The notes beneath the pieces are model-generated. The model had not been told where the DNA came from, searched no databases, and saw only the letters and a program-made list of their open reading frames with translations. This document shows, in pieces, positions 2,080-42,762 of a DNA stretch of 64,000 bases. Position numbers and translations under genes: made by a program. Every line of letters begins with the position of its first letter. Position 1 is the stretch's first letter. Origin of the DNA: Dehalococcoidales bacterium (GTDB taxonomy: Bacteria; Chloroflexota; Dehalococcoidia; Dehalococcoidales; Fen-1064); assembly GCA_035529395.1 (NCBI GenBank), contig DATKWT010000122.1, positions 1,496 to 65,495 of the forward strand, read 5' to 3'.

Positions 2080-3228
2080 CTAGAGTGCTTCCAGGACCAG
2101 TTCAGCGATGTCCTTACACTCGATGACTTCTTCCTTGTTCATGGTGACGATGCTATCTTTGAAGTTGGCGATACAATAAGGGCACACCGCAGCCAGGACA
2201 CTGGCACCGACATCTGCTGCCTGCTCCAGCCTGATATCGGAAAACCTTTCGCCTTTCTTGGTCTCCGCCCATATACGACCACCGCCACCCCCGCAGCACA
2301 GGCTATCCTCGTGGTGGTTGGCCATCTCTACCAGTTCCACGCCGGGGATGGCCTGCAGGACCTCCCTGGGCTCATCATAGATATCGTTATGCCGTCCCAG
2401 GTAGCAGGAGTCATGGTAGGTGATGGTCTTCTGAAGCTCCCTGGTAAACTCCAGCCTACCGTCTCTAATCAACTCGGCAAGAAACTGGACGAAGTGTACC
2501 ACCTCATACTTGCCGTCCAGTTCGGGGTACTCGTTCTTGAAGGTGTGGAAGCAGTGTGGCGAGGCGGTGATTATCCTGGTGACCCCGGCCTCATTGAACA
2601 GGCCGATGTTGCTCTGGGCCAGGCTCTGGAACAGGCTCTCGTTACCGGCCTTGCGGACACTCTCACCACAGCAGGACATCTCCGGGCCCAGTATGCCAAA
2701 GTCAACATTGGCCTTCTTCAGAATCTCCACAGTCGCTCGGGCTGCCGGCTGTAACTGCGGGTCGTAGGTATTGTAGCAGCACGGCACGTAGAGTATTTCC
2801 ATCCCCTTGGTGAAGGTCTTCACCCCGAGGTCTCTTGTCCAGTCGTTGCGCTTCTCCCGGTCTTCTCCCTGCGGATTGCCCACGCCGGAGATGTTCTTAG
2901 ACGTTATCCGCAGCGAGTCGGGAATACCACCGATACCGAGTTCGGTGATTGCCCTGCGGAAGGAGCGCCAGACGTCGATAATCTCCACGCCGCGGGGGCA
3001 CCGCTTGACACAAGCATTGCAGGTCACGCACAGCCACATGTCGTCGTCTTCGAAGTCGGGCAGACCCAACTGGGCCTGGTGCATTGCCTTGCGGACGGGG
3101 AAGCCTCTCACCAGGTTCCACGGGCAGGTACCGGTGCAGAGGCCGCACTGGTAGCACAGCTTGGCGATATCGCCGCCTTCTTCCTTGATGATGTCTACCG
3201 CTTCCTGGAACGGTGCTACTGCTTGCAT
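2080..3228 (-). CDS. HdrD-like Fe-S oxidoreductase (2x[4Fe-4S] ferredoxin domain plus two CCG domains)
   Basis: CYQCGLCTGTCP and CVTCNACVKRCP cluster motifs, followed by two CCG-type Cys motifs (MSCCGES, SLCCGGGGG). Confidence 0.8.
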   Translation of the reverse strand: MQAVAPFQEAVDIIKEEGGDIAKLCYQCGLCTGTCPWNLVRGFPVRKAMHQAQLGLPDFEDDDMWLCVTCNACVKRCPRGVEIIDVWRSFRRAITELGIGGIPDSLRITSKNISGVGNPQGEDREKRNDWTRDLGVKTFTKGMEILYVPCCYNTYDPQLQPAARATVEILKKANVDFGILGPEMSCCGESVRKAGNESLFQSLAQSNIGLFNEAGVTRIITASPHCFHTFKNEYPELDGKYEVVHFVQFLAELIRDGRLEFTRELQKTITYHDSCYLGRHNDIYDEPREVLQAIPGVELVEMANHHEDSLCCGGGGGRIWAETKKGERFSDIRLEQAADVGASVLAAVCPYCIANFKDSIVTMNKEEVIECKDIAELVLEAL

Positions 3229-3298
3229 CTTGGGTTCCCCCCTTGTCTATCAGTTTCACGGTCCTCGCTTGACGAATAACCGTGGCGGTATCAGGTTA

Positions 3299-4165
3299 TC
3301 AGATGAGGTTCTGCGCCTTCAGGACCGGTACCGGGTTCTGGATGTGGCACTTCCACCAACTCTTCATTTCCCCGGCACCGGCACCCAGGGCCAGCGCCAG
3401 CAGCTCACTGAAGTAAAAAGTGGGCACGCCGATAGTCTGTCGTAGTTCAAGGTTTGCCTGGCAGAGCGGGCAGGCGGTTACAATAGCTACTGCTCCGGCA
3501 TCAAGAGCTGCCTGGCAGATGTCATTGCAGAGTTTTACGACGATATCGGTTCGGGCCAGCAACAGGTTTCCGCCGCAGCATTCAACCTTGTGGGTCCAAT
3601 CCAGAGGCTCCGCGCCGATAGCAGTGAGCAGGTTGTCCATAATCATCGGGTTATTCGGGTCGTCTAACTGGGTAACCTCCGGAGGGCGTACCAGATAGCA
3701 CCCGTAATAAGCAGCCAGCTTCAGCCCCTTGAGCGGCTTTTTCACCCGGCGCTCGATTTCCTCCAGCCCTACTTCGCGGGCAAAAATATCAAGGACATGC
3801 CTCACCTCGGTTTCTGCCCGGTAGGGTGCGTCAATGACCTGCTCTATCCTCTGCCGGAGTGTATCATCGGCGCGAAGGTCATGATTGGTCTGTTTGAAAC
3901 GGAGGAAACAGGCAGCGCATGATACCGCGAGGTCATGGCCCTCTTTCTCGGCCAGGGCAAGGTTCCTCGCCGGCAGGGCCAGGGAAAGCTCGGGGTCGGT
4001 GCAGTGCCCGGAAGAGGCACCGCAGCAATTCCAGTCCTCAAGCTCCACCAGTTCCACGTCCAGTAGCCTGGCGGACGCCTGTACCGACTGGTTGTATTCC
4101 TTGGCCGTAGCCTCCAGCGAGCAACCCGGATAGTAGCAATACTTCGATGCTGTGGTATCAGCCAT
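3299..4165 (-). CDS. hdrB: heterodisulfide reductase subunit B-like (two CCG domains)
   Basis: YYPGCSL..., NCCGAS and ECCGGN motifs. It overlaps the hdrC stop by 8 nt. Confidence 0.8.
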   Translation of the reverse strand: MADTTASKYCYYPGCSLEATAKEYNQSVQASARLLDVELVELEDWNCCGASSGHCTDPELSLALPARNLALAEKEGHDLAVSCAACFLRFKQTNHDLRADDTLRQRIEQVIDAPYRAETEVRHVLDIFAREVGLEEIERRVKKPLKGLKLAAYYGCYLVRPPEVTQLDDPNNPMIMDNLLTAIGAEPLDWTHKVECCGGNLLLARTDIVVKLCNDICQAALDAGAVAIVTACPLCQANLELRQTIGVPTFYFSELLALALGAGAGEMKSWWKCHIQNPVPVLKAQNLI

Positions 4166-4745
4166 TCTTTTTCTCCGTCTGCTGGAAAATACGCTTGATG
4201 TTCGCCGTACCCTTTATCTTGGCGGGTAGTATTGCCAGCTTGCCCCTGGTGAACATATTGAGCCCCATCTTGATGTTACTGGGTAGCTCATTCAGCTTGA
4301 AGATATCGCGGCTGATGAGCATGTAGCGCAAGATGAGGAGCAATTCGTGCACCTTCCCATTGCTCTTGATAGTGCTGAGGAAGGTCCTGTGGAAAAGGGG
4401 CAGGCCGGTCTGCTGCGTGCGGCCTTCCCTGAGGGCAATGTGCCTCAGGGTATCCATTATCTGCACGATTTCAATGTCATTGGGGCACCTGGTAGCACAG
4501 GTCTCACAACTGGCACAGAGCCAGTAAGTCGTGCTGTCCAGCACCCGCTCCTTAAGCCCGAGTTGCACCATCCTCAGTAGCTGGTGTGGGGCGTAGTCAA
4601 ACGCATAGGCTACCGGACAACCGGAGCTACAGGCCTGGCACTGGTAGCACCGTTCCAGGTGCGCCATGCTGTTCCCCAGTACTTCGCGGGTGAAGGCCGG
4701 GTCAGCGCTTTCTGTGCCTTGCTGGCTGACAAGACGGACCGTCAT
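4158..4745 (-). CDS. hdrC: heterodisulfide reductase subunit C-like (2x[4Fe-4S])
   Basis: CYQCQACSSGCP and CASCETCATRCP. The preferred start is the ATG at 4745, which has an AGGAGA RBS and an ATGA overlap with the upstream stop. The longest ORF reaches 4760. Confidence 0.8.
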   Translation of the reverse strand: MTVRLVSQQGTESADPAFTREVLGNSMAHLERCYQCQACSSGCPVAYAFDYAPHQLLRMVQLGLKERVLDSTTYWLCASCETCATRCPNDIEIVQIMDTLRHIALREGRTQQTGLPLFHRTFLSTIKSNGKVHELLLILRYMLISRDIFKLNELPSNIKMGLNMFTRGKLAILPAKIKGTANIKRIFQQTEKKNG

Positions 4746-5872
4746 TTCTCTCCTATCCACTGAAGCTCATCTTCCCTGAAGGTGGTTAGCGGTAGCTCAT
4801 CCTCCAGGCTGCGTCCGGGGATGTAGTCAAAGAGCTTCTGTACGTTGCCGCCGGCTAGCTGGAATATCTTGAGCAGAGGGATACCGCTGGGGCAGGCCTC
4901 TTCGCAGGCCCCGCAGCCCACGCACGAGGCACCCATGTGGGTCATCCTGGTCAGGTGAAAGAGGAGGGTATCGACGGGCATCCTCACGGCCCCCTGTTTC
5001 TCGGCCACACCGAGGTACTTCTCTGCCTCAAGCTCAAAGGTGGGCGAATCGAAGAAACACTCGCGACAGTAGCAGACCGGGCAGACTGTCTGGCAATTGT
5101 GGCACAGGATGCAGGGTCCGAACACCTCGGCAAGTTTCTCGATACCGCCGACTTCTGCTTTTGTCTCCTCGAAGAACTTCTGGCGGATTCCCTTCATCTT
5201 CTCAAGGAGCTGAGTAACCGCTGCCTCCCGCTTTGTTGCTGCTTCGCCACCATCCTCGACGGTAAGCCCCAGGCCCTCAAGGAGTTCCTCTCCCTTCTCG
5301 CTGCTGGCAATCAGCACCAGCTTCTGCTTCAGGTCCACCCCCACCAGGCCGATGGTGAGGTCCGTCATCAGTGGGACGGGGTACTCGCAGACCCGGCAGC
5401 CGGCTCTCAGCCTGGGGTCGTCCTGTCCATTCCAGGCAGCCCCGGCGAATTCGTCCGAGGTCTTCTCCGCAACCAACTCAGGGTAATCACTCACGGAATA
5501 TGCTCCCGGGCAGTCGATTCCGATGAGATAGAGGTTGTCGAGCGATGCCTGTCGCAGTTTGACCAACTCGACCAGGGCACGCAGTTCACAGGGTTTCATC
5601 ACCACGGCCGTCTTCCGGTCGGCGGGTGTCAGTCGGGTGATTGACTGGATGATACGGGCCGCATTCACCGGCATCACCGGTGCGAGGACGTCTGCCCGGT
5701 CAAGGTAGTCAGGATTGGTTACCAGGGTCTGCACCACGTTATTTCCTGCCGGGTGAGTCAGAGGTACCAGGATTGCGTCGACCACTCCCTTGCTGAGCAG
5801 GTCCTTGAGCAGGGTGTTGATACTTGCCCGCAGTTGTCCGTCATTAACGGTCAGGGTCGTACTCTTCGCCAT
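4742..5872 (-). CDS. FrhB/FdhB-family flavoprotein with C-terminal 4Fe-4S motifs
   Basis: The N-terminal half resembles the coenzyme F420 hydrogenase/dehydrogenase beta family (VVMKPCELRALVELVK). The C-terminal half has CILCHNCQTVCP and CVGCGACEEACP. Confidence 0.65.
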   Translation of the reverse strand: MAKSTTLTVNDGQLRASINTLLKDLLSKGVVDAILVPLTHPAGNNVVQTLVTNPDYLDRADVLAPVMPVNAARIIQSITRLTPADRKTAVVMKPCELRALVELVKLRQASLDNLYLIGIDCPGAYSVSDYPELVAEKTSDEFAGAAWNGQDDPRLRAGCRVCEYPVPLMTDLTIGLVGVDLKQKLVLIASSEKGEELLEGLGLTVEDGGEAATKREAAVTQLLEKMKGIRQKFFEETKAEVGGIEKLAEVFGPCILCHNCQTVCPVCYCRECFFDSPTFELEAEKYLGVAEKQGAVRMPVDTLLFHLTRMTHMGASCVGCGACEEACPSGIPLLKIFQLAGGNVQKLFDYIPGRSLEDELPLTTFREDELQWIGEK

Positions 5873-5883
5873 TATCTTGCCTC

Positions 5884-6318
5884 CTAAAGAGCCCAGTCGG
5901 AGGCCAGGGGGTTGGGGCCTTTCTTCCTGGTCTCCTCAGTAATATCTCTTACGGCCTGAGCGAACTCCGGCCCCTCGCTGGCACTTATCCACCTTGTATA
6001 GATTCGGTCCGCATCCAGCCCCAGGGACTCGAAGATATTCTGCAGCATGGCCATTCTTCTTCTCGCTTTATAGTTGCCGGATACGTAGTGGCAGTCCCCG
6101 GGATGGCATCCACCCACCATAACGGAATCGGCACCGGAGAGTAGCGCCTTTATCAGGTACACCGGGTCGACCGTGCCGCTGCACATCACACGTATCGGGT
6201 GGAGATTGGCCGGGTATTGTGCCCTGGTTGTCCCTGCCAGGTCGGCGGCTGCACCGGTGCACCAGTTGCACAGAAAACCAATTATCTTCGGTTCGAATCC
6301 GCTATCGTCTTCAGCCAT
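5884..6318 (-). CDS. mvhD: MvhD/FlpD-type hydrogenase iron-sulfur subunit
   Basis: FLCNWCTGAAADLAG...VMCSGTVDP...GADSVMVGGCHPGDCHY is the characteristic MvhD pattern. Confidence 0.85.
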   Translation of the reverse strand: MAEDDSGFEPKIIGFLCNWCTGAAADLAGTTRAQYPANLHPIRVMCSGTVDPVYLIKALLSGADSVMVGGCHPGDCHYVSGNYKARRRMAMLQNIFESLGLDADRIYTRWISASEGPEFAQAVRDITEETRKKGPNPLASDWAL

Positions 6319-6367
6319 CTATCCAACTCCTTTGTTTCTTCACCCGCCTTGCCGGGACGGCAAGGCG

Positions 6368-9300
6368 CTACAGCACTGCTTCGAGCATGGAGAACATCTG
6401 CTTGTCCCGGAATCCTCTCAGCTTGGCGGCGCTATTCGGGCAATGCGCGACACACGCCCCGCAGCCCTGGCACAGGACTTCATCCACCACGGCTATCCTG
6501 TTGTCCTCGTCCATCCAACGGGCATTGAAGGGACAATCGTCAACACAAAGTCCGCAGCCGCTGCACCTTCTTGAGTCCACCATGGAGACAATTCTACCGG
6601 ATTCAATCTGCTGCCGGGACAGGATGTTGGCGGCTCTCTGTGCCGCTGCCTGGGCCTGGACGACCTCTTCATCGAGGTTCCTGGGAGCATTGGCCAGGCC
6701 ACAGATAAAGATACCGTCGATAACCGTGTCCACCGGCCGGAACTTGGTATCGACTTCCTTGAAGAATCCGTCTTCGGTCAGGTCAATGGAGAGTGTTTCT
6801 GCCAGTTGCCTGTTATCCGCAGCAACAATACCGGTGCTCAGCACCAGCAGGTCGGCATCGATTTCCAGTATACCGGGAAGCACCGGGTCATCAACCCGGA
6901 CGGTAAGGGTACCACCGTTCACGGATACATCCGGCTTGTTATCCGGCTCGTAGCGGATGAAGAGGACGCCGGCTTCTCGTGCCTTTGAGTAGTATTCCTC
7001 ACGGAATGCGTAGGTCATGATATCCCGGTTCAGGATAAAGACCTCTGTCTCCGGGTTCTGCTCTTTTATCTTGATGGCGTTGGCTATCGCTGTCGAGCAG
7101 CACGTCCGGCTGCAGTACGGGTGCTCTTCGTCCCGTGAACCGACACACTGTATCATGACCACGGCAGACGGTTTTTCCAGGGTGTCTTCGGCGAGTCGCT
7201 TCTGGAGCTCTTTCTGAGTGATTATGCGGTCATCCTGTCCGTAGCTGTACTCCGTAGGCTCGTAGTCCCTGGCACCGGTGGCAACAATCACCGCACCATG
7301 TCCTGTTTCTGTAATTGTGCCGTCAACTGCGCGTATCATGCTGTGGAAGTCACCGGCGCGGCCGGTTGTTTCAATAACCTCACTCTCCGGGTACAGGTGG
7401 ATTCTGGAGTTAGCGGCAACCTTCTCCCGAATACCACCGATAAAGGCCTGCGGGTCATCACTGCCCAGCGTATAGCGGATGTCGGTGGCGTGGCCTCCGG
7501 TTTCCGCGTTCTTCTCGACGAGGTGTACCTTGAATCCCTGCTCGGCGAGGTTGAGGGCGGAGACCAGTCCGGAAACTCCCCCGCCGATGACCAGTGCCTG
7601 GTGGTCGACCGGTCTCGTGGTAACGACGAGCGGTTCCTGGCTTCGCAGTTGGTCCACAGTCATGGCCAGGATGCGGCGGGCTTTCTCGGTGGCCTGCGGC
7701 TGGTTGTCGCGGTGTACCCAGGCAAGCTGCTCCCGGAAATTGACCAGTTGCCACAGCGAGGGGTCAATGCCAGCTTCCTGCATTGCTTTGCCGAACAGTC
7801 TCTGGTAGTGGTAGGGGGCACAGGCTGCCAGGATAACCCGGTTGACACCGGTGCCGGCCACTGCCTTCTTCACTTTTTCCAGGGTCTCCGGCAGGCAGAG
7901 GAAGTCAACTTCTTCAACATGTTTGACTGCGGGCAGACCTCGGGCGAATTCAGCAACCTGGGCGGTATCCACTACTGCCGTTATCTCCTCACCACACTGG
8001 CAGATGAAGACGGCTATTCCGGGCTCCTCCCCGCTGACTGCCGGTACTGCAGTGCCCGCGTCTTTGGCGACCGTTTCCCGTTCTACCGGTGAGAGGAGTG
8101 TGGCAGCCTCGCAGGCGGCGGCGCTGGCCTGGATAACCGAGTCCGAGATGTCGGCCGGTGCGCCTGCGGAACCGCAGACATAGATACCTTCCTTGCTTGT
8201 CCTGGTCTGCAACCAGTCCTGGGTCTGGATAAAGCCCCACTGGTTAGCATCTACTCCCAGCATCTCGCTTAGTTCTTCCATACGGGATGACGGGCACTGG
8301 GCGGCGGCGAGTATCACCAGGTCGAATTCGCTGCGGATGTCACTGCCATCCTCGGCTCGGGCCAGCAGGAGCAGGTCCTTCGTAGCCGGGTTCTCCCTCA
8401 TGGTGGAAACGCGGCACCGGATGAACTGAACTCCCAGTTCCTGTGCCTTGAGATGGTAGCGGTAGTAGTCCTTGCCGAAATCGCGCAGGTCCATGTAGTA
8501 GATGGTGACATCGGTCTCCGGGCTTTTTTCTTTAATCAGTATCGCCTCTTTCAGGGCGTACATGCAGCAGGCGGTGGAACAGTAATTCCGCTTCATATCC
8601 CGCGAGCCGACGCACTGAAGCAGGGCTACCTTCTTCGGTGCATCTCCGTTCGAGGGACGGAGGAGCCTGCCATCCGTCTTTCCGGTTGATGACAGCAGCC
8701 GTTCCGCCTGAAGGTTGGTCAGGACATTGGCGTAGCGGCCGAAACCATACTGGCTCATCTCGGCGGCGTCATACTCCTGAAAGCCCGCGGAGACGATGAT
8801 TGCTCCCACAGCCAGTTCCTGTGATTCGTCCTTAAGGTCGAGGTCAATCGCGTTTGTCGGGCATACTTCCAGGCATTTGCCACACCTGGTACATGCCTCG
8901 CGGTCGATGCAGTAGAAGTTGGGTATTGCCTGGGGGCTCTGGACGTATATCGCTTTCCGGCTCTGGAGGCCGTCATTGTATTCGTCGGGTACCTCAACCG
9001 GGCACACCTCAGCGCACAGTCCGCAGGCGGTACAACGCTCGGTCTTGACCCAGCGGGACAACGTCTTTACGGATATGCCGAAGTTGCCGGCTTCACCGGT
9101 TACCTTCTCCACTATGGTGTTGGGTAGCATTTCTATATTGGGGTGGGCGAGGTCACGGCGCAGGCAATATTGGGAGCATTCGTCGCGAGAGAATACGGGC
9201 AGCAGCTTGCACAGCTCACACTGGTTATCCGGGAACCACTTGTCCAGTTGGGGAACAGTGCCACCGATACCCGGGCTGGTATCGACAAGATAGGTCTGAA

Positions 9301-9385
9301 AGCCTGATTCAGCCAGGTCCAGGGCAGCTCTGATACCGCTTACTCCGGCACCGATGACTAAGACTGCACCAACCTTATCCTGCAT
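6368..9385 (-). CDS. tandem double HdrA-like flavoprotein (1005 aa)
   Basis: There are two FAD sites (VLVIGAGVSGIRAA; ALVIGGGVSGLVSA) and two CVGSRD...C...CC motifs. An internal MvhD-like/HdrA N-domain segment (VFICQCGEEI) and several CxxCxxCxxxCP motifs are also present. Confidence 0.8.
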   Translation of the reverse strand: MQDKVGAVLVIGAGVSGIRAALDLAESGFQTYLVDTSPGIGGTVPQLDKWFPDNQCELCKLLPVFSRDECSQYCLRRDLAHPNIEMLPNTIVEKVTGEAGNFGISVKTLSRWVKTERCTACGLCAEVCPVEVPDEYNDGLQSRKAIYVQSPQAIPNFYCIDREACTRCGKCLEVCPTNAIDLDLKDESQELAVGAIIVSAGFQEYDAAEMSQYGFGRYANVLTNLQAERLLSSTGKTDGRLLRPSNGDAPKKVALLQCVGSRDMKRNYCSTACCMYALKEAILIKEKSPETDVTIYYMDLRDFGKDYYRYHLKAQELGVQFIRCRVSTMRENPATKDLLLLARAEDGSDIRSEFDLVILAAAQCPSSRMEELSEMLGVDANQWGFIQTQDWLQTRTSKEGIYVCGSAGAPADISDSVIQASAAACEAATLLSPVERETVAKDAGTAVPAVSGEEPGIAVFICQCGEEITAVVDTAQVAEFARGLPAVKHVEEVDFLCLPETLEKVKKAVAGTGVNRVILAACAPYHYQRLFGKAMQEAGIDPSLWQLVNFREQLAWVHRDNQPQATEKARRILAMTVDQLRSQEPLVVTTRPVDHQALVIGGGVSGLVSALNLAEQGFKVHLVEKNAETGGHATDIRYTLGSDDPQAFIGGIREKVAANSRIHLYPESEVIETTGRAGDFHSMIRAVDGTITETGHGAVIVATGARDYEPTEYSYGQDDRIITQKELQKRLAEDTLEKPSAVVMIQCVGSRDEEHPYCSRTCCSTAIANAIKIKEQNPETEVFILNRDIMTYAFREEYYSKAREAGVLFIRYEPDNKPDVSVNGGTLTVRVDDPVLPGILEIDADLLVLSTGIVAADNRQLAETLSIDLTEDGFFKEVDTKFRPVDTVIDGIFICGLANAPRNLDEEVVQAQAAAQRAANILSRQQIESGRIVSMVDSRRCSGCGLCVDDCPFNARWMDEDNRIAVVDEVLCQGCGACVAHCPNSAAKLRGFRDKQMFSMLEAVL

Positions 9386-9412
9386 TCAAAGCTCCTATCC
9401 GGCTCAACTGGT

Positions 9413-11392
9413 CTAGCTTGCTAGACCGGCATATTCCCTGGTTGCCGTATTAATTACGTCAATCAACTGCTTTGGTGAAAAATTCTTGAGTTGCATTGCC
9501 TTGGAGGGACAGTTCACCGCACAGGCACCACAACCCTTGCAGATTGCCTCATTGACCTTGGCCTTCTTTGTCCTGGAGTCAACTTCGACGGCGCTGTAGG
9601 CACAGATAGCCTCGCATACGCCGCAGCCGCTGCACACCTCCTCGTCAACCATTGCGGTGGCTGCTTCCATCTCCACCTTGCCCTTGGCGATTAGTTCTAT
9701 CGCCCTGGCGGCGGCCCCGGTAGCCTGGGCAACAGTATCGGCAATGTCCTTGGGTCCCTGGCAACAGCCGACGGCGAATATGCCGTCCAGCATGGTGCCT
9801 ACCGGGTCAAGCTTGGGGTGCCGTTCCATGAAGAAGCCGTCCCTGCTCCGCCCGAGCAGCAGAGTCCGCGCCATCTCATCGGTGTCGGCACGCGCTTCCA
9901 TAGCCACACTGAGGATGACCATGTCTACCGGGACCCGAATCAGGGTGCCCAACAAGGTATCCTCGCAGACCACTATCAGCTTGCCCTTCTCCTCGTCCTC
10001 CTGGGTAATATTGGTAACCTGGGCTACCTTACCCCGGATGAAGTTCACCCCTTCATCTCCGGCCTGTTTGTAGAACTCCTCGTGCCCCTTGCCGAAGCAG
10101 CGCATATCGATGTACATCTGGTAGGCATCTATGCCCATCTCATTGAGGAAGCGAGCATACTTGAGGCCGTACATGCAGCATACGCGGGAACAATACTCGT
10201 GGTAATTCTCATCCCGGCTGCCTACACAATGAATAATGGCCACACTCTGCGGTGTTGAGCCGTCCTTGAGCGTGATATTACCACCGGTGGGCCCGCTGGA
10301 GTTGACCATCCTTTCGAACTCGGGGCTGGTCACCACGTTGTCGAATTTCCCGTAGCCATACTGTGTTATCGGGGATGGGTCGAAGGTATCATAACCGGTT
10401 GATACGATTACTGCGCCCACCTCGATTTCCACGTCTTCGTCCTTCTGCTCGTAGTCAATCGCGTCCTTCGGGCAGGCTTCCTGACAGATACGACAGTCGC
10501 CATTGGTAAAATGAAGGCAGTTCTCGCGGTCAATCATCGGGACATTGGGCACCGCTTCCGGGAATGGCCGGAAGATTGCCTTTCTCTTGCTCAGACCGCG
10601 GTCGAACTCACTGTCTACCTCTACCGGGCATTTCTCCCAGCAGGCACCACAGCCGTCACATTTATTCTCATCGACATACCGGGCCTTCTTCTTGACTGTC
10701 GCACGGAAATTGCCGATATAGCCGCTCAGCTCGCTCAGTTCGCTACAGGTCATCAGGTCAATGTACTCGCTGGATGCCACCTGCTCTAGCCTGGGAGCAA
10801 GGATGTCCATGGCGGGTTCGAGGTAGGGGAAGGTCTTGCCAAGCTGGGCCATACGACCGCCGATGCTGGGTTCCCTCTCCAACAGGTAGACATTGCGCTC
10901 CGAACCGGCGATTTCCAGGGCGGTCTGGATACCGGCGATGCCCGCCCCGATAATAAGGGTGTTGGGATTGACCGGGGCGAATTTAGTTTCCAACGGGTCA
11001 CGGTACAGAACACGTGCCACGCCAGCGGCTACCAGTGCCATAGCCTTCTCGGTAGCCTGTTGATTATCATGGCTGTGCACCCACGAGCAGTGTTCGCGGA
11101 TAGTGGCCATTTCGCAGAGGTGGGGGTTTAGTCCGGCGGTCTGGCAGGCTTCCCGGAAGGTGCGGAGGTGCAGGGTTGGTGAGCAGGAGCACACCAGTAC
11201 ACGGTTCAGCCCCAATTCCTGGATGTCATTCTTGATGAAGTCCTGTCCCGGGTCGGAACACATGAAGGAGTAATCGCGAGCAATGACTACAGAATCAAGG
11301 CTCTGAGCGAATTCAGTGACTTTCTTACAGTCAAGATAACCGGCAATATTAGACCCGCAGTGACATATATATACTCCGACTCTTTTCTCCAT
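9413..11392 (-). CDS. hdrA: heterodisulfide reductase subunit A (canonical architecture, 659 aa)
   Basis: N-domain VGVYICHCGSNIAGY, FAD site LIIGAGIAGIQTA, inserted ferredoxin CDGCGACWEKCP, HCVGSRDENYHEYCSRVCCMY, and C-terminal CSGCGVCEAIC / CKGCGACAVNCP. Confidence 0.88.
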   Translation of the reverse strand: MEKRVGVYICHCGSNIAGYLDCKKVTEFAQSLDSVVIARDYSFMCSDPGQDFIKNDIQELGLNRVLVCSCSPTLHLRTFREACQTAGLNPHLCEMATIREHCSWVHSHDNQQATEKAMALVAAGVARVLYRDPLETKFAPVNPNTLIIGAGIAGIQTALEIAGSERNVYLLEREPSIGGRMAQLGKTFPYLEPAMDILAPRLEQVASSEYIDLMTCSELSELSGYIGNFRATVKKKARYVDENKCDGCGACWEKCPVEVDSEFDRGLSKRKAIFRPFPEAVPNVPMIDRENCLHFTNGDCRICQEACPKDAIDYEQKDEDVEIEVGAVIVSTGYDTFDPSPITQYGYGKFDNVVTSPEFERMVNSSGPTGGNITLKDGSTPQSVAIIHCVGSRDENYHEYCSRVCCMYGLKYARFLNEMGIDAYQMYIDMRCFGKGHEEFYKQAGDEGVNFIRGKVAQVTNITQEDEEKGKLIVVCEDTLLGTLIRVPVDMVILSVAMEARADTDEMARTLLLGRSRDGFFMERHPKLDPVGTMLDGIFAVGCCQGPKDIADTVAQATGAAARAIELIAKGKVEMEAATAMVDEEVCSGCGVCEAICAYSAVEVDSRTKKAKVNEAICKGCGACAVNCPSKAMQLKNFSPKQLIDVINTATREYAGLAS

Positions 11393-11423
11393 ATATCTAT
11401 TCTATTCCTGCTTTCCCTCAGTC

Positions 11424-14165
11424 TCAGCCGACGGCCACGGTCTCGGTACCGACCTCGCCCTTGGTGACCAAGGCCAGGGCTTTGGCGGCAGCTCCTATCG
11501 CCTGTGACACTGTATCCGGGATATCCTTGGGTCCCTGGCAGCACCCGGCCATATAGATTCCGTCGGTCTGTGTTCCCATAATATCAAGCTTGTAGTGTTT
11601 CTCTTCAAAAAAGCCATCGCTATCCTGGTCCAGCCAGAAGAGCCTGGCGACATCACCGGCATCGGCGCGCGACTGGATAGCCACGTTGAGGACGACCATG
11701 TCCACCGGCACCCTTATCAGGCTCCCGAGCAGGGTGTCCTCGCATACCACAACCAGTTTCCCCTTCTCTTCGTCGGTCAGGGCAACATCGGTTACCTGGG
11801 CAACCTTGCCGCGGATGAAGTTGATGCCTTCCTCTGAAATACGTTTATAAAACTCCTCGTAACCCTTACCGAAGCAACGCATGTCAATGTACATCTGGTA
11901 GACATCTGCACCGGTCTTTTCCTTTAGCTGGTGGGCATGTTTGAGGCCATACATGCAGCATACGCGTGAGCAGTACAAGTGGTAATTCTCGTCACGGCTG
12001 CCTACACAGTGAATAATGGCGGCGCTCTTCGGGGTGGAACCGTCCTTGAGCATCACCTTACCCTCCGTCGGGCCGGTGGAGCTTATCATGCGTTCCATCT
12101 CGAGGCTGGTGAATACATTTTCAAATTTCCCGTACCCGTACTGCGTCATCGAGGTGGGGTCGAAGAGGTCATAGCCAGTGGTGACGATAATAGCACCGAC
12201 CTCCAGATTAACGAACTCGTCTTTCATATCGTGGTCGATGGCCTCCCGCTCACAGGCAGGGATACAGGCAAGACACTCGGAGCAGACACCGCAATTCAAA
12301 CACCGTTTTGCCTCTTCTATCGCATTCTCCTCGGAGAAGCCCAGTTCTACCTCAGGAAAACCACCCCGCTGGTCCTTTTCGAGCATAGGCATTTGCTGCC
12401 GTGCCTTTTTAACGACACCGGCTTTGTTGACGTTCTTAACTCTTTCTCTCGGTTCCGACCGGCCCTCTTTCAGGTCGACATTCCTGAGATAGCGGTCAAT
12501 TGAAATGGCCGCTTCTTTCCCGGTGGCAACCGCTCCGATGACGGTATCCGGACCGGAGACGGCATCACCACCGGCAAATACTCCGTCGATATTCGTATGC
12601 AGCGTCAAATCGTCGACGATAATCGTTCCAAACCGGGTGTACTCAAGTTTGTCCGGGAGCATTTCCTGGTTCACCCGCTGGCCGATTGCCATGATAACGG
12701 TATCGACTTCCATGGTGAACTCGGAGCCTGCTATTGGCACCGGTCGTCTTCGGCCGCTCTCATCGGGTTCACCCAGCTCCATACGAATGCACTCGATGCC
12801 GGTGACCTTCCCGTTCTGGGAGAGGACCTTGACCGGATTCACCAGTATATTGATTGCGATGCCTTCTACCTCCGCTTCATCCACCTCGGTCTTATCGGCG
12901 GGCATCTCAGTTCGTGAGCGGCGGTACACGATGGCAACTTCCTCAGCCCCGATGCGGTTGGCTACCCTGGCGGCGTCGATAGCGGCATTGCCACCGCCAA
13001 TCACAGCCACCCTGTTTCCTAACTTAACCTTTTCGCCGGAGTTTGCTCGCTGCAGGAAACTGAGGGCATTCAGCACGCCATTGGCATCTTCACCGGGAAT
13101 ACCCATCGTCTGGCCGATACCGGCCCCGGCAGCAATGAATACCGCCTTGTAGTCATCTTTGAACAGGTCTTCCAGCTTCGTGACGGTGGTATTGGTGCGT
13201 ATCTCGACGCCCAGTTCCTGGACGTAGCCAATCTCATCGTCCACTATGCTGTTGGGCAAGCGGTATTCGGGAATACCGTAGCGGAGGAGGCCGCCTACCT
13301 TCGGAGCAGCTTCGAACACCGTCACCGGGTAACCCATCCGTATAAGGTCATAGGCACAACCGATTCCGGCAGGTCCGGACCCGATGATGGCCACCTTCTC
13401 TTCATGGGTCAATTCGACGGGTGTTGCCTTTTCCCGCCCGTTTTGCATTTCATAGTCAGCCATGAAGCGCTTCAGGTAACGGATAGCGACTGACTCGTCT
13501 ACCTGACCACGCTCACATTCCGATTCGCAGGGGTGGGTGCAGACCCGGCCACAGACCCCGGCAAAGGGCATGGTGCGCCGTAGCACTCCAAGGGCTTCCT
13601 TGAACCGTCCCTGTGATATCAGGGCTATGTAACCCTGGGCGTTCACACCGGCAGGGCAAGCCACACGGCACGGGGGCAAACCTCGCTTGTCGATCGTATA
13701 TACGTTGGGGACCGCCTGGGGAAACGGGCGGTAAGCCGCCTGGCGATCTACCAGGCCCAGTTGCCACTCGCTTGGAAAGGAGACCGGACACACCTTGGCG
13801 CACTCCCCGCAGCCGGTGCATTTACTGATATCGATATAACCGGCTTTCTTCCTTACCTTGACATTGAAGTCGCCGGCATGGCCTGAGACCTCTTCTACCT
13901 CGCAGTAAGTCATCAGCTCAATGTTCTTATTCGAGCCTACCTGACTCATCTTGGGGGTACCGATACAGGAGGCGCAGTCCATGGTGGGGAAGGTCTTGTC
14001 AAGCTGCAGCATGCGCCCGCCCACGGTGGGTGACCTCTCCACCAGATACACACGATGGTCCGAGTCTGCAACCTCAAGGGCTGCCTGCATACCGGCGATA
14101 CCGGCACCAACAATCAGGACATCGGGTTTGCTACGGGCTTCACTCCTTGCAGCTCTTTCCGCCAA
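11424..14165 (-). CDS. HdrA-like flavoprotein with an inserted GltD/NfnB-like NAD(P)H-binding module (913 aa)
   Basis: TTG start at 14165 with a GGGAGG RBS. HdrA-type N-terminus (VLIVGAGIAGMQAA, CTGCGECAKVCP). A GltD-type region follows (CPAGVNAQGYIALI..., CGRVCTHPCESEC, VAIIGSGPAGIGCA, VAVIGGGNAAIDAA). The HdrA body then resumes (HCVGSRDENYHLYCSRVCCMY). Confidence 0.8.
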   Translation of the reverse strand: MAERAARSEARSKPDVLIVGAGIAGMQAALEVADSDHRVYLVERSPTVGGRMLQLDKTFPTMDCASCIGTPKMSQVGSNKNIELMTYCEVEEVSGHAGDFNVKVRKKAGYIDISKCTGCGECAKVCPVSFPSEWQLGLVDRQAAYRPFPQAVPNVYTIDKRGLPPCRVACPAGVNAQGYIALISQGRFKEALGVLRRTMPFAGVCGRVCTHPCESECERGQVDESVAIRYLKRFMADYEMQNGREKATPVELTHEEKVAIIGSGPAGIGCAYDLIRMGYPVTVFEAAPKVGGLLRYGIPEYRLPNSIVDDEIGYVQELGVEIRTNTTVTKLEDLFKDDYKAVFIAAGAGIGQTMGIPGEDANGVLNALSFLQRANSGEKVKLGNRVAVIGGGNAAIDAARVANRIGAEEVAIVYRRSRTEMPADKTEVDEAEVEGIAINILVNPVKVLSQNGKVTGIECIRMELGEPDESGRRRPVPIAGSEFTMEVDTVIMAIGQRVNQEMLPDKLEYTRFGTIIVDDLTLHTNIDGVFAGGDAVSGPDTVIGAVATGKEAAISIDRYLRNVDLKEGRSEPRERVKNVNKAGVVKKARQQMPMLEKDQRGGFPEVELGFSEENAIEEAKRCLNCGVCSECLACIPACEREAIDHDMKDEFVNLEVGAIIVTTGYDLFDPTSMTQYGYGKFENVFTSLEMERMISSTGPTEGKVMLKDGSTPKSAAIIHCVGSRDENYHLYCSRVCCMYGLKHAHQLKEKTGADVYQMYIDMRCFGKGYEEFYKRISEEGINFIRGKVAQVTDVALTDEEKGKLVVVCEDTLLGSLIRVPVDMVVLNVAIQSRADAGDVARLFWLDQDSDGFFEEKHYKLDIMGTQTDGIYMAGCCQGPKDIPDTVSQAIGAAAKALALVTKGEVGTETVAVG

Positions 14166-14224: not shown

Positions 14225-14443
14225 TCCTGATAACAGGTTATTTCCCGGTTACTCAGGTGGTAACCGGACATAACGGAACTGTAATCACAGTAAAACAGGG
14301 TGGTCGCGTGATGCGAAACACCCTGTAATAGTAGTCTCCACAACACTATTATAGCTCAATTCTGTTTTTGATGCACGTGACTTTGATCACACAGCTTTTT
14401 CTGTGTGCGGGTGCCCTGATAAGGAGCGTTACCGGGGAAGTGA

Positions 14444-28005: not shown

Positions 28006-29436
28006 ATGGATGGAAATGTTGGCCACCTGGTGGATAGCGTGAAGTCCGTTATCAGGCATGGTATGACGTCGGTCTTTAAGCATAGAGGACTGACTGCAAA
28101 CTGGCGCCTGTGGCTGCTGGCGTGCGTGATGATAGCCTTTATCGTTGTCATGACAATCGACCTCGCCAATGCTGAAGTCAACTCTGCTCGCACCTTCGCC
28201 CAGATACTCCTGTTCTTCGTTACTGCCCTGCTCGTCACGGCGCAATACGGCTTCTGGTGGGGCCTGTTCACTTCATCCGTGCTCGGAATCTTCATCGTTT
28301 GGCGCATACTTGGCAGTGATAATCCGGGTGACTACCTGCCCCTTTTCGCCGGGCTGATGGTAATACTTTTTACCATTTGCTGGTTGCTTGACCAAACGGA
28401 CAGGGCGCGGAAGCAAATGGGGGATAGCACTGATATCCTCAAACAGCAGGCAGACAGGCTTGTCGAACTGCTAGATGGCCGCTCGCAGGTAGAAACAGCC
28501 ATGATGTTCTCGGAAGGCAGGTTACGGGTGATACTGAAAGCGCTTGAGGGTTGGCAGCAACAGTGGGCACAGGTAAAAGATACTGAGGCCCTGAGCTCTA
28601 TCCTGACACAGTCCATGGTCATGCTGCGGAAGGTGGTTACCGATATCGATGAGCAGGGCAAAGCAGGCCCAGTGGCAGTAGAGCCGATGCCTGATGAATC
28701 TACCAGCACACTGGTCGTATCGCCGTTTCACAGCCTGGCGCTTGTGGAGCTATATAGCCGGCTACTTGAAGAACTGCCGAATATCAGGCACTGCGTTCTG
28801 GACACCTTTGCAGAGGTCACAGCAACCTTTCGAATTTACGGCCCGGATGCCGCTCAGTTGTCCAAAGCACTGTTGATAATGAGATACCCCCAGGCGGACA
28901 GCATCAGCATGCGTGACGACCAGGTGCAGGTGGTGCTCAAAGAGGGTCTGGTGCCATCGGCGGTCACTACCGGTGACAGGGGAACCGGTGCTGTACCGGG
29001 TGTACGGGCACCTTCGGAGGAGCTTCCGTACGAACTCGGTGTAGACGTGTTTTTCAACGCACGGCACTACGTGATGACGAGTGGGAATCGTGGTCCGGTG
29101 CATTCTCATAGCTGGCGGGTACAGGCGAGACTGGTCAGTCGTGATGTTACCAGTGAGGGTATCACGATTGGTTTCGCCGAAGCCAAGGAAGTGGTCCAGC
29201 AGCAGGTCAGCCGGTTCGATGGGGATATCCTGAATGAAATGGAACAGTTTCGAGAGATACAGCCCACTACGGAGAATGTCGCCATGGTCCTGTATGACGG
29301 CATCAAAGAAGCAGTCAGGCCGCTCACGGTCAGGCTGACCTCGGTGTGTGTATGGGAGAGCCCTACTAATTATGTGGTGTATTCGGGGAGCAGGGATGTC
29401 ACGCCTGTGGAATCGGCTGCAAGCCATACTGAATAG
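28006..29436 (+). CDS. membrane / coiled-coil / C-terminal PTPS(QueD)-like domain fusion protein
   Basis: About 4 N-terminal TM helices. The last ~125 aa align by eye to E. coli QueD: ARH...HSHSW vs AAH...HGHSF; GITIGFAEAK vs GWIIDFAELK; PTTENVA vs PTSEVLA; VWESPTNYVVY vs VKETCTAGCIY. Confidence 0.7.
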   Translation: MDGNVGHLVDSVKSVIRHGMTSVFKHRGLTANWRLWLLACVMIAFIVVMTIDLANAEVNSARTFAQILLFFVTALLVTAQYGFWWGLFTSSVLGIFIVWRILGSDNPGDYLPLFAGLMVILFTICWLLDQTDRARKQMGDSTDILKQQADRLVELLDGRSQVETAMMFSEGRLRVILKALEGWQQQWAQVKDTEALSSILTQSMVMLRKVVTDIDEQGKAGPVAVEPMPDESTSTLVVSPFHSLALVELYSRLLEELPNIRHCVLDTFAEVTATFRIYGPDAAQLSKALLIMRYPQADSISMRDDQVQVVLKEGLVPSAVTTGDRGTGAVPGVRAPSEELPYELGVDVFFNARHYVMTSGNRGPVHSHSWRVQARLVSRDVTSEGITIGFAEAKEVVQQQVSRFDGDILNEMEQFREIQPTTENVAMVLYDGIKEAVRPLTVRLTSVCVWESPTNYVVYSGSRDVTPVESAASHTE

Positions 29437-31927: not shown

Positions 31928-32754
31928 TGAGAAAGGGAATACCGGGCGTTTGCCGGATACTACTGGCCACCATCCTTACCGTGGCTCTTATCACGACGAT
32001 GTTTGGCATCACCCCGGGTGCTGCCTATGCAGCTGCGCCGGTGATTACGCTTGATAGCGATTTCTCTGACTGGACCGGGCAGATGTACATCACCGACCCA
32101 ACAGGTGATGCCACTGATGGTGACAAGGATATCACCGCTTTCTACTGGGCGAACAACCCTGATGACGAGATGTGTTACTGGATGATAGCCCGGGTAAATT
32201 CAACAAAAAATGTGAACTATCAGGTGCAATTTGATGCCAACAACGATGGTGATTTTGCTGATCATGTTGACCGGTTGGTAGAAGTGGATTACAAACCGAT
32301 GAATGACGATAGCAAGGTGACCGTAACCGTGCTATATGCGGACAACGGTAGGAAGATAAGCGAGACCAATAACAATGACTGGGGTGAATCCAAGAATGAA
32401 GGTGCCAGCAAAGTGGAGTTTGGCGCAAGCTTTGAAGACCTCGGCATCAGCATCGGGCAGACGATAAGGATGTACGGTATCAGCTATATCGGCAAGTGCT
32501 ACGGCGGGGATGTATACAGGAATGACGGAGATGAGGGAGATGAGGGAGATGAGGATGATGAGGATGAGGACGACCCAGGTCTTCGGGGGGAGAGCAAGAA
32601 TAGCTGCCACATCAGTGACCGCGTACCGGATAGCGGAGATGTCCAGTGGGCACCTGTTCCCGTACTGGGATACCCGCTACTGGTGGCGGTGATGATGCTG
32701 GGAGGAACGGCTATCTGGTATTTCACCGGGAGGCGCAGGTGGAGCTCTCTGTAA
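31927..32754 (+). CDS. secreted protein with C-terminal exosortase-type sorting signal
   Basis: Signal peptide ...PGAAYA/AAP. Acidic run DGDEGDEGDEDDEDEDD. The C-terminus is PVPVLGYPLLVAVMMLGGTAIWYFTGRRRW (motif, then TM, then a basic cluster). Confidence 0.7.
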   Translation: MRKGIPGVCRILLATILTVALITTMFGITPGAAYAAAPVITLDSDFSDWTGQMYITDPTGDATDGDKDITAFYWANNPDDEMCYWMIARVNSTKNVNYQVQFDANNDGDFADHVDRLVEVDYKPMNDDSKVTVTVLYADNGRKISETNNNDWGESKNEGASKVEFGASFEDLGISIGQTIRMYGISYIGKCYGGDVYRNDGDEGDEGDEDDEDEDDPGLRGESKNSCHISDRVPDSGDVQWAPVPVLGYPLLVAVMMLGGTAIWYFTGRRRWSSL

Positions 32755-33350
32755 TAGTCTCTCTGGCGGCAGTCTGGTTGCTGGTAGTATACTTCTTCTA
32801 CCGGAACCGTATCTGGCTGCTATACTACCTCGTCGGGGCTATCGGCCTTGCTTTCATCATCATTTTCGTGGGCAGGGCTTTCTTCCTGGAAGCGGCCATG
32901 GAGCAGGTCGTGGCGCAGACAGTGCACCAGATATGCAAGCTGGCGGGCATCCCGACAAAGATATTCGAGTCGGCACCGGGGGCATTGCTGGTGATGGTTA
33001 TTGCGCAGGACATTGGCTGGACGGTAATACAGATAGGCATTGAGTGCTCCGGGTTGCTGGAGACCTCCGCCATGCTGGGTATGGTGCTCTTCTACCCCGG
33101 ATGGTCATGGGGTAAACGGTTAATCCTGACAGCTATCGGCGTTATTGCCATTTACTTCGCCAACATCATACGCCTTTTCTTCATCGTGGAAATACTCCAT
33201 CACGGCGGGAAGGATACCATTTTCATTTCCCATACCATTGCCGGAAGGGCAATATTCTTCATTATTGTGGTCGGTATTTACTGGTTTGTCATCACGCGTC
33301 CAACTCTGAGTACAATACGCAACAAACTCCGCAAGGAGATGGCAGTATGA
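32739..33350 (+). CDS. exosortase/archaeosortase-family transpeptidase (XrtG-like)
   Basis: GTG 32739 has a GGGAGG RBS. The protein is polytopic, with conserved Cys in IGIECSGL, Arg in FANIIRLF and His in ISHTIAGR. Confidence 0.75.
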   Translation: MELSVIVSLAAVWLLVVYFFYRNRIWLLYYLVGAIGLAFIIIFVGRAFFLEAAMEQVVAQTVHQICKLAGIPTKIFESAPGALLVMVIAQDIGWTVIQIGIECSGLLETSAMLGMVLFYPGWSWGKRLILTAIGVIAIYFANIIRLFFIVEILHHGGKDTIFISHTIAGRAIFFIIVVGIYWFVITRPTLSTIRNKLRKEMAV

Positions 33351-42684: not shown

Positions 42685-42728
42685 TTAATTCTTTTACATA
42701 TAGATAGTCTGCTTCAAGCAAAGAGTAA

Positions 42729-42762
42729 GGCTGTCCGGGATATCCTGGGCAGCCTTTTTATT
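42729..42762 (+). terminator. rho-independent terminator of the rpoN-HK-RR operon
   Basis: An 11-bp stem ggctgtccggg/cctgggcagcc (two G-U pairs) with loop atat, followed by TTTTTATTT. Confidence 0.75.

Follow-up and report, generated by a model that had tools for sequence, protein, structure and literature searches.

We analyzed a 64-kb stretch of DNA from a Dehalococcoidales bacterium (contig DATKWT010000122.1; hereafter, the window), which carries a cluster of heterodisulfide reductase (Hdr)-type genes on its minus strand (positions 14165–2080). An earlier reading of the same DNA (the original prediction) had described eight co-directional redox genes with short gaps or overlaps, followed by two short-chain dehydrogenase/reductase (SDR) genes. 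All ten open reading frames (ORFs) were confirmed on the minus strand at the coordinates given, and domain and family searches bore out every family label (Table 1; G1 to G10 in order of transcription). Neighboring Hdr-type genes are at most 70 nt apart or overlap: the gaps from G1 to G5 are 31, 27, 49 and 11 nt, G5 and G6 share a 4-nt ATGA (19 nt if G6 starts at GTG), G6 and G7 overlap by 8 nt, and G7/G8 and G8/G9 are separated by 70 nt and 39 nt. In alignments, the products were homologues of HdrA, MvhD, FdhB, HdrBC and HdrD with intact flavin and Fe-S signatures, and the HdrA-like genes were not generic FAD oxidoreductases. The analysis below suggests that the cluster encodes two asymmetric pairs of HdrA units.

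Table 1. Genes and sequence features of the Hdr-type cluster (window positions)
Feature	Position	Strand	Description
Promoter of G1	14224-14196	-	sigma-70-type; TTGCAC (14224-14219), 17-nt spacer, TAGAAT (14201-14196)
Ribosome-binding site of G1	14178-14173	-	GGGAGG; TTG start at 14165
G1	14165-11424	-	913 aa, HdrA with inserted GltD/NfnB module
NfnB/GltD-like insert of G1	13715-12291	-	aa 151-625; two [4Fe-4S] motifs, FAD fold, NAD(P)H fold
G2	11392-9413	-	659 aa, full-length HdrA
G3	9385-6368	-	1005 aa, two HdrA units in one protein
G4	6318-5884	-	144 aa, MvhD-type [2Fe-2S] adaptor, 5 Cys
G5	5872-4742	-	376 aa, FdhB/ElpB-like flavo-iron-sulfur subunit
G6	4760-4158	-	HdrC-like subunit, two [4Fe-4S] motifs
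G7	4165-3299	-	HdrB-like subunit, two CCG motifs
G8	3228-2080	-	382 aa, soluble HdrD-like protein
G9	2040-1141	-	SDR gene
Intrinsic-terminator-like hairpin	~1097-1061	-	12 bp, 9 G-C, T-rich tail; 43 nt past G9 stop
G10	982-158	-	second SDR gene

We mapped the HdrA proteins onto 5ODC_A numbering, with the reference rebuilt from the alignment of 5odc_A with G2. The three tandem HdrA of the original prediction held as a count of genes; these encode four HdrA units (G1, G2, G3 half A and G3 half B). All four units carry the HA4 cysteines (386, 399, 403 and 404 in 5ODC numbering). The flavin lysine (5ODC Lys409) is present in G1 (Lys742), G2 (Lys411) and G3 half A (Lys279), and is replaced by Ala768 in G3 half B.

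G1 is an "A-type" unit, with a thioredoxin-reductase-like (TrxR) FAD domain, Cys64 and Cys67 (equivalent to 5ODC Cys194 and Cys197), the lysine and the four HA4 cysteines. It has neither the N-terminal domain nor the C-terminal ferredoxin domain, and its inserted ferredoxin domain is interrupted by an NfnB-like module. Pfam Fer4_20 and Pyr_redox_2 cover residues 164–549, and the NCBIfam HdrA2 model fits the flanks. This ligand and domain pattern was identical in 11 orthologues. One database protein (P0001), annotated as from a Dehalococcoidales bacterium, matches G1 at 100% identity. The insert matched 9bov_A (E = 5.8e-131), NfnB 4ylf_B (3.3e-103) and 5jca_L (3.4e-94) in the PDB, and it scored above the cut-off of NCBIfam PRK12771. 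Its NAD(P)H dinucleotide fold reads VAVIGGGNAAIDAAR ... VYRRSRTEMPA; we take VYRRS after the second dinucleotide fold to be typical of NADPH-binding GltD/NfnB proteins. The PDB matches put an NAD(P)H site in the NfnB-like insert, in keeping with the NAD(P)H input proposed originally.

G2 is collinear with 5odc_A over residues 2–649 (E = 2.5e-209). It is a "B-type" unit, with the N-terminal cluster domain, inserted ferredoxin domain, HA4, Lys411 and C-terminal ferredoxin domain. We observed that Cys194 and Cys197 are replaced (YLEPAMD), and that both are lost in 16 of 16 orthologous G2 ORFs (15 genomes: the Dehalococcoidia clusters and the Caldithrix locus L029). HdrAs of other cluster types retain both residues. 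Missing Cys194/Cys197, the 659-aa G2 is not the fully canonical HdrA that it had been called.

G3 aligned with 5odc_A in three stretches (E = 1.2e-166). Half A (aa 1 to ~440) contains the TrxR domain, the inserted ferredoxin domain, Cys56/Cys59 and Lys279, without terminal domains. Half B (aa ~454–1005) contains the N-terminal domain, HA4, the C-terminal ferredoxin domain and a TrxR domain without CxxC, and has no inserted ferredoxin domain. The pattern is kept in 15 orthologues, archaeal ones included, and the missing lysine in half B is a feature of the bacterial members. An exact-sequence database look-up of G3 returned no record.

Across the four units, the N-terminal domain and Cys194/197 never occur together: G1 and G3 half A have the Cys pair, and G2 and G3 half B have the domain. 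Similarly, the inserted and C-terminal ferredoxin domains are both present in G2, only the inserted one in G1 and G3 half A, and only the C-terminal one in G3 half B, such that the set is complete per pair and not per unit. In the solved HdrA (5ODC), the N-terminal cluster of each subunit is completed by Cys197 from its partner. No unit here could complete this cluster with a symmetric partner, as in a homodimer-type HdrA; completion is available only in trans, by asymmetric pairing. Tandem and fused HdrAs of anaerobic methanotrophic (ANME) archaea show the same complementarity of N-terminal domain and Cys197, which was interpreted as enforcing heterodimers (PMC9012536). In the cryo-electron microscopy structure of class II benzoyl-CoA reductase (BCRII), the fused HdrA dimer is BamE, in which one flavin bifurcates (Lys280, Cys59–Cys62) and the other is non-bifurcating and structural (Gln768) (preprint 10.64898/2026.04.10.717634). 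Compared with these published residue positions, G3 is collinear with BamE (Cys56/59 vs Cys59/62, Lys279 vs Lys280 and Ala768 vs Gln768).

Because the ligand and domain losses are complementary and have precedents in ANME and BamE, we read the operon as encoding two asymmetric HdrA pairs. The alignments show that the A-type units (G1 and G3 half A) carry all the residues and folds that published structures place at a bifurcating flavin, i.e. the FAD fold, lysine, CxxC pair and HA4. The B-type units (G2 and G3 half B) were likewise shown to carry the N-terminal cluster domain along with the ferredoxin domain at the C terminus, where MvhD-type arms dock, and no CxxC pair.

The phylogeny of the HdrA copies, which the original prediction had called for, was obtained from a core-domain identity matrix and a neighbor-joining tree of HdrA units. 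By core domain, G1 and G2 are closest to each other (69% identity), with full-length HdrL as their sister group (62–63%). G3 half A and half B fall in old clades common to Desulfobacterota and Methanomassiliicoccales. These data suggest that G1 and G2 arose by a lineage-specific duplication followed by reciprocal loss. Because the two are recent paralogues, HdrA symmetry would have been broken a second time here, independently of G3. We also considered 1490–1590 aa "HdrL-fused" proteins of other lineages as Rosetta-stone proof of G1–G2 contact. These proteins have the same A(+NfnB)/B layout as G1/G2, and both of their halves fall in the G3 half A and half B clades; we rejected them as proof and regard them as analogues, not G1+G2 fusions.

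G4 matched FlpD (E = 3.6e-49) and, over its full length, 5odc_D (E = 3.1e-45). For G5, Pfam gave only a weak, partial FrhB_FdhB_C match. A G5 family profile (29 members) matched 9t1s_M (1.3e-47), 8rvu_E (9.9e-39) and 7bkb_E (1.5e-36) in the PDB over residues 10–362, and an AlphaFold (AF2) model of G5 (mean predicted local distance difference test score, 76) had 7bkb_E and 8rvu_E as its top Foldseek matches. G5 has 15 invariant or near-invariant Cys, with the motifs CxxCxxCxxxCPxCxCxxC and CxxCxxCxxxCP as in FdhB. MvhD/ElpC together with FdhB/ElpB is the structurally established donor arm of the Fdh-Hdr and Elp-Hdr complexes, and the FdhB/ElpB flavin can oxidize reduced cofactor F420 (F420H2) (PMC12350162). 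Elp-Hdr thus offers a precedent for the deazaflavin input raised in the original prediction. We found no FdhA, ElpA or FrhAG partner of G5 in the window, nor in orthologous clusters or flanks with listed genes; the synteny comparison covered relatives of G1 to G10 only.

In G6, 8 Cys make up two CxxCxxCxxxCP motifs. The likely start of G6 is the ATG at 4745, which overlaps the G5 stop; the orthologue in L001 (complete Dehalococcoidales genome CP070842.1) is called at 195 aa. G7 contains the CCG domain twice (E = 2.1e-20) and matched 7bkb_B (E = 1.9e-37) and 5odc_B (E = 1.9e-31); its 10 Cys form two complete CCG motifs (15/47/48/83/86 and 156/196/197/232/235). G8 combines an HdrC-like 2x[4Fe-4S] N-terminus with two CCG domains (Pfam CCG, E = 7e-34). 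Its first CCG site has five Cys (150, 151, 186, 187 and 226) and a His, and its second is canonical (275, 311, 312, 349 and 352). The best solved relative of G8 is mycobacterial EtfD (9ojn_A, 5.4e-64), with G8 residues 60–381 aligned to EtfD 405–744. We found no membrane-helix-type hydrophobic segments in any product, G8 included. BamD likewise has five Cys and a His at its first CCG site; it passes high-potential electrons to electron-transferring flavoprotein (ETF), and its heterodisulfide pocket is blocked (preprint 10.64898/2026.04.10.717634). The two alternative disulfide-reductase modules proposed originally thus hold as two CCG-type exit modules. A disulfide reductase function of G8 itself is doubtful: the protein appears nearest to EtfD and resembles BamD, both of which exchange electrons with ETF.

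We next consider transcription. The candidate promoter that the original prediction placed before the first gene is conserved: comparison of upstream regions identified the same element (TTGCA[C/T] or TTGCGC, 17–18 nt, TAnAAT) ~30–60 nt before the G1 start codon in at least seven orthologous clusters (L001, L008, L009 and L014–L017). A generic sigma-70 scan upstream of G1 called no promoter, because the −35 hexamer fits only 3/6. The hairpin between G9 and G10 (1097–1071) is the only strong terminator-like element on the coding strand, and its position between the two SDR genes limits the unit to G1–G8 plus one SDR in this lineage. By spacing, conserved promoter and sole strong terminator, G1–G8 look like one transcription unit. 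The operon would comprise the promoter, G1–G8, a passenger SDR gene and the terminator (Table 1).

Further upstream, the window contains a Rex-operator-like box, TGTGATCAAAGTCAC (14377–14391, minus strand), the sole TGTGA-N6-TCAC match in 64 kb (0.49 expected), ~25 nt upstream of a perfect TATAAT (14353–14348). L004, a metagenome-assembled genome (MAG) from the Black Sea at 750 m that is 93–97% identical across the cluster, has a perfect palindrome at the same place, and HdrL of the Desulfobacteraceae locus L081 also has a canonical-looking Rex-like box upstream. We rejected Rex-type regulation: the box is kept only in near-identical L004 and not before the other orthologous clusters. The distal TATAAT is followed by a hairpin (CAGGGTG...CACCCTG) and a TTTT run (14292–14353, minus strand). 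This attenuator-like element, part of a ~190-nt leader, is conserved in L004 and in L001 (80% identical); its loop sequence varies. The leader fold was only marginally better than shuffles (z = −2.0), and the 278-nt region upstream of G1 had no Rfam match to a riboswitch or known RNA even at E ≤ 1.

To place the cluster among its relatives, one genome per species was scanned for relatives of G5, and synteny was taken from the best 80 of more than 369 loci. The original prediction had called the genes an "Hdr supercluster". The arrangement is neither isolated nor unprecedented: the combination of an MvhD/FdhB-like pair, HdrL and a fused HdrA dimer is found repeatedly, with matches (loci encoding G5 relatives) in more than 369 species-level genomes, and thousands of metagenomic proteins matched as well. 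In 75 of the 81 homologous loci, the gene directly upstream of the FdhB-like one encodes MvhD. The synteny search suggested originally found the identical eight-gene order in ~14 Dehalococcoidia genomes and seven of the eight genes in one Caldithrix MAG. The order full-length HdrL, MvhD, FdhB-like, fused dimer, HdrC, HdrB occurs in 17 Desulfobacterota loci. Smaller sets exist as well: full-length HdrL with only HdrCB (L002/L003), and a minimal trio of G3, MvhD and FdhB-like in Thermoplasmata and Methanomassiliicoccales (L024–L026). In the archaeal trios (L020, L024–L026) G5 is ~50–53% identical to the Dehalococcoidia protein, compared to only ~40–44% for Desulfobacterota G5, which hints at cross-domain transfer of the core module.

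A membrane-anchored HdrD-like protein takes the place of HdrCB in 6 of the 80 loci (L043, 3733–6054; L078, 3395–5695; L053; L059; L074; L076), most of them titled Desulfobacterales or Deltaproteobacteria. This protein (~770–800 aa, upstream of HdrL) begins with an HdrC-like 2x[4Fe-4S] region, ends in an HdrD-like one and contains several hydrophobic helices. Its presence suggests that the same core complex there has an exit to the membrane or to quinone.

The closest described relative is the Desulfobacterota form, the "HdrABC/HdrL" of Syntrophobacter fumaroxidans (Sfum_0819–0824), which was in the proteome only with sulfate and whose function is speculative (PMC5947623); HdrL was first named in Desulfobacterium autotrophicum (Strittmatter 2009). 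The S. fumaroxidans and D. autotrophicum HRM2 clusters share with ours an NfnB-bearing HdrA, MvhD, an FdhB-like protein without FdhA, a fused HdrA, HdrC and HdrB (37–54% identity), and likewise have no hydrogenase or formate dehydrogenase catalytic subunit. Dozens of Desulfobacterota genomes yielded G5 homologues in this context. Similar to the 1113–1140 aa HdrLs, G1 carries its GltD/NfnB module within the inserted ferredoxin domain. However, Desulfobacterota HdrL is full length (~1125–1140 aa) and can homodimerize because it has the terminal domains and Cys197, whereas here a 913-aa protein is accompanied by a Cys197-less HdrA. HdrL is a full-length scaffold directly before mvhD; G1 is separated from mvhD by G2 and G3. 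The gene orders also differ (HdrL-MvhD-FdhB-like-dimer-HdrCB in Desulfobacterota; here the fused dimer precedes MvhD). The Dehalococcoidales dimer is without the ~130-aa insertion of the Desulfobacterota form, and the soluble HdrD-like gene is extra.

The HdrA set is not unprecedented, since every HdrA architecture found here has already been described for ANME-1 (PMC9012536). ANME-1 and our cluster have in common a ~500-aa NfnB-like insertion in the inserted ferredoxin domain (ANME HdrA9–11), a fused double HdrA (HdrA3/4), complementary loss of N-terminal domain and Cys197 in tandem copies (5/6, 12/13) and FdhB homologues without FdhA; HdrD-like genes occur occasionally in ANME. In contrast to ANME-1, the host here is bacterial, without methane metabolism or coenzymes M and B (CoM/CoB), and all three HdrA architectures are combined in one operon. 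The N-terminal half of ANME HdrA3/4 carries the N-terminal domain, whereas in G3 the order is reversed, with the A-type half first.

Judged by published descriptions, the cluster resembles BamDEF of Geobacter metallireducens in its fused HdrA dimer, MvhD-type adaptor and HdrD-like exit whose first CCG site has five Cys and a His. It differs in having no BamBC catalytic or BamGHI input module, a short MvhD without selenocysteine, all five Cys of the distal CCG site in G8, and the extra HdrBC, HdrL and FdhB-like proteins. The methanogen Fdh-Hdr and Elp-Hdr complexes (7BKB, 8RVU; PMC12350162) share homologues of HdrA, HdrB, HdrC, MvhD and FdhB/ElpB (E from 1e-31 to 1e-209). Compared to these, FdhA/ElpA is absent, the HdrA dimer appears asymmetric instead of C2-symmetric, and an NADPH module is inserted. 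To our knowledge, the methanogen substrate CoM-S-S-CoB is not to be expected in Dehalococcoidales. Residues 151–625 of G1 fit the whole of NfnB from NfnAB (Thermotoga maritima 4YLF, Pyrococcus furiosus 5JCA), with both dinucleotide folds and the N-terminal cluster region, but there is no NfnA, and the module is embedded in an HdrA ferredoxin domain rather than being a free subunit. G8 aligns with the cytoplasmic CCG region of mycobacterial EtfD, the ETF:menaquinone oxidoreductase (EMO) (9OJN; PMC13083937), but has no membrane or haem domain and so lacks the membrane di-haem part of EtfD/EMO.

Partner genes were sought around the cluster. The original prediction of no hydrogenase or formate dehydrogenase partner was upheld: neither a catalytic hydrogenase nor a formate dehydrogenase turned up in the larger scanned ORFs of the 64-kb window, or beside the orthologous cluster in the complete genome CP070842.1 (L001). 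No ETF, ferredoxin, DsrC, hydrogenase or FdhA gene was found as a conserved neighbor of the cluster, nor did the window or the conserved neighbors include a gene for a thiol/disulfide carrier such as DsrC or LbpA. AOR-type BamBC or NuoEFG-like BamGHI domains were not detected in scanned window ORFs or beside orthologous clusters, and metF and metV (MetFV-HdrABC-MvhD, the Moorella-type methylene-tetrahydrofolate reductase) are absent from the operon and its flanks. The only recurrent neighbor is presumably an SmpB-like gene, a label we gave from reading its sequence. The trailing SDR genes, originally seen as a hint of an organic substrate, accompany the cluster only in near-identical L004 and are absent from the other ~13 genomes with the same eight genes. 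We rejected them as a substrate clue, as they are unconserved and a terminator lies between them, leaving the second SDR gene behind it. G9 is probably co-transcribed here, as a lineage-specific passenger that is no conserved part of the system.

On balance, we favor the view that the cluster encodes a soluble, cytoplasmic HdrA-type flavin-based bifurcating or confurcating system of the HdrL / MvhD / FdhB-like / fused dimer / HdrCB kind, whose assembly and mechanism we infer. It would be a large iron-sulfur flavoprotein machine that probably draws on NADPH and sends the two electrons of a pair to acceptors of low and high energy. G1 would pair obligately with G2 as a heterodimer whose only bifurcation site lies in G1, and G3 would by itself make up a pseudo-heterodimer whose one site lies in half A, as in BamE. 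NADPH would be oxidized, or NADP+ reduced, at the NfnB-like module wired into the inserted ferredoxin domain of G1. The MvhD/FdhB-like arm would dock on the B-type units (G2 and G3 half B). Because no FdhA or hydrogenase is present, this arm would either exchange hydride with a soluble cofactor at its flavin or wire the two HdrA modules together. High-potential electrons could leave via HdrC–HdrB to a disulfide, and also via the EtfD/BamD-like G8 to a non-thiol carrier such as ETF; low-potential electrons could reach ferredoxin by way of the inserted ferredoxin domains that are intact in G2 and G3 half A. Physiologically, the flow may run the other way (confurcation).

Several points weigh against this proposal. 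No member of the cluster family has been purified, and its stoichiometry, substrates and direction are our deductions. The NfnB-like module lies on the low-potential (ferredoxin) branch of HdrA, so NADP(H) could accept low-potential electrons instead of acting as the donor. The flavin of G2 may not be inert, since G2 retains the flavin lysine and its inserted ferredoxin domain is intact. A single MvhD/FdhB-like gene pair would serve two B-type units. Genes for ETF, ferredoxin, a DsrC-like protein or any other carrier are not conserved beside the cluster, and because the 1490–1590 aa proteins are not G1+G2 fusions, they give no Rosetta-stone proof of G1–G2 contact. Finally, sub-modules occur alone elsewhere, namely HdrL-HdrCB (L002), G3-MvhD-FdhB-like-HdrCB (L027) and G3-MvhD-FdhB-like (Thermoplasmata), and therefore two separate enzymes fit these occurrences as well as one supercomplex.

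Two independent enzymes that share only regulation are a real, though clearly less probable, alternative. In this case G1/G2 would be NADPH-linked and use one CCG module, probably the HdrD-like one, and G3 with MvhD/FdhB-like would use HdrCB. The operon does contain two A-type units and two CCG modules, and nature offers the separate parts: HdrL-HdrC-HdrB alone (L002/L003), G3-MvhD-FdhB-like-HdrC-HdrB in the Dehalococcoidales locus L027 and the trio in L024–L026. In L018 and L022 the HdrD-like gene even lies beside the NfnB-bearing HdrA, with HdrCB after the FdhB-like gene. However, at least 23 Desulfobacterota loci always keep HdrL, MvhD, FdhB-like and fused dimer together, with only one CCG-type module for HdrL and the dimer and with MvhD/FdhB-like between these two. 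The eight-gene order is invariant in ~14 genomes, the FdhB-like subunit is without its usual upstream partner, which leaves its docking face free, and proteomics of S. fumaroxidans detected the set together (PMC5947623).

The remaining alternatives concern the electron source and the client. An F420H2-dependent Hdr like Elp-Hdr or Methanosarcina HdrA2B2C2, in which the FdhB-like flavin oxidizes reduced deazaflavin and the NfnB-like module makes NADPH as one product, seems to us quite unlikely. It would agree with the full-length homology of G5 to ElpB/FdhB, whose flavin oxidizes F420H2 and feeds Hdr through MvhD/ElpC, with the absence of FdhA or hydrogenase from the cluster, and with an NfnB module on the low-potential output branch. 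Nonetheless, the scanned ORFs of the window gave no sign of F420 biosynthesis or other F420 enzymes, G5 is ~20 residues short of FdhB between the flavin-domain cysteines in the alignment, and FrhB-family proteins can use other partners, e.g. HCAR. The same family is also abundant in Desulfobacterota, among which we know of no F420 producers. We consider it very improbable that G3, MvhD and the HdrD-like protein act as a BamDEF-like low-potential supply for an unlinked very-low-potential reductase, e.g. an AOR-type dearomatizing enzyme as in BCRII. G3 does have the topology and landmark residues of BamE (published positions), G8 resembles BamD and EtfD, and MvhD corresponds to the BamF adaptor. 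But scanned window ORFs and the surroundings of orthologous clusters contain no BamB/C (AOR) or BamGHI (NuoEFG-like) genes, G4 is a short Cys-type MvhD without the extra ~100 residues and selenocysteine reported for BamF, and the canonical HdrBC and NADPH module found here are both missing from BCRII.

An extension of the bifurcating or confurcating system favored above is more speculative, and we hold it to be unlikely. Here the orphan MvhD/FdhB-like arm would connect the NADPH-linked G1/G2 heterodimer, as a second independent asymmetric dimer, in series with the BamE-like G3, like the coupled modules of BCRII, giving a two-stage "electron transformer" for soluble equilibration of NADPH, ferredoxin, thiol/disulfide and ETF. 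If this were true, quinone-poor Dehalococcoidia would equilibrate NADPH, ferredoxin, thiol/disulfide and ETF (beta-oxidation electrons) without a membrane.

Elsewhere in the window we noted several other features. Four proteins are encoded in a low-G+C block (38275–44128, plus strand; ~0.47 vs ~0.56 elsewhere). One is sigma-54-like with the DNA-binding domain only, one is a histidine kinase, another is a sigma-54-dependent response regulator, and the last is a response-regulator/2x[4Fe-4S] fusion. The sensor part of the kinase is a [FeFe]-hydrogenase large-subunit-like domain with Fe-S motifs, and the block has the look of a regulatory cassette for sensing H2 or redox state rather than of a catalytic hydrogenase. 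An NrpR-type regulator (archaeal nitrogen repressor family) lies close to a glutamate dehydrogenase gene in this bacterial contig (49273–50271 and 47137–48393, both minus strand). A CetZ-like tubulin homologue (Tubulin and CetZ_C domains) is encoded at 61595–62773 (minus strand); CP070842.1 has a similar gene (L001, 1651–2817) ~7 kb upstream of its orthologous Hdr cluster. A 1063-aa ORF (50611–53802, plus strand) had no Pfam match at E ≤ 1e-6. Genes for a PTPS-domain protein, an 859-aa PTPS-related membrane protein, an exosortase-like protein and a family-2 glycosyltransferase (28006–34681, plus strand) are probably cell-envelope related.

Overall, homology and gene order identify the cluster as the Dehalococcoidales version of a recognized, widespread HdrL / MvhD / FdhB-like / fused-HdrA-dimer / HdrCB cluster. 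What is new is in the detail, as judged from the sequences: the two asymmetric HdrA pairs, the second independent symmetry break in G1/G2 and the EtfD/BamD-like nature of the HdrD-like protein. Papers on Dehalococcoidia MAGs list "hdrABC" as hydrogen or bifurcation potential, and we found no literature description of this arrangement; the present data caution against the annotation "hydrogen utilisation (hdrABC)", which is current practice for Dehalococcoidia MAGs. HdrA-based bifurcation is structurally understood only in methanogen complexes and, very recently, in benzoyl-CoA reductase, whereas bacterial HdrL / FdhB-like / fused-HdrA clusters are very common and are abundant in sulfate-reducer proteomes. 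In the Dehalococcoidales version the subunit logic is unusually easy to read: the reciprocal ligand and domain losses predict which units must pair, which flavins bifurcate, and the docking places of the entry arm and both exit modules, and they provide concrete targets for modelling, heterologous expression and meta-omics.

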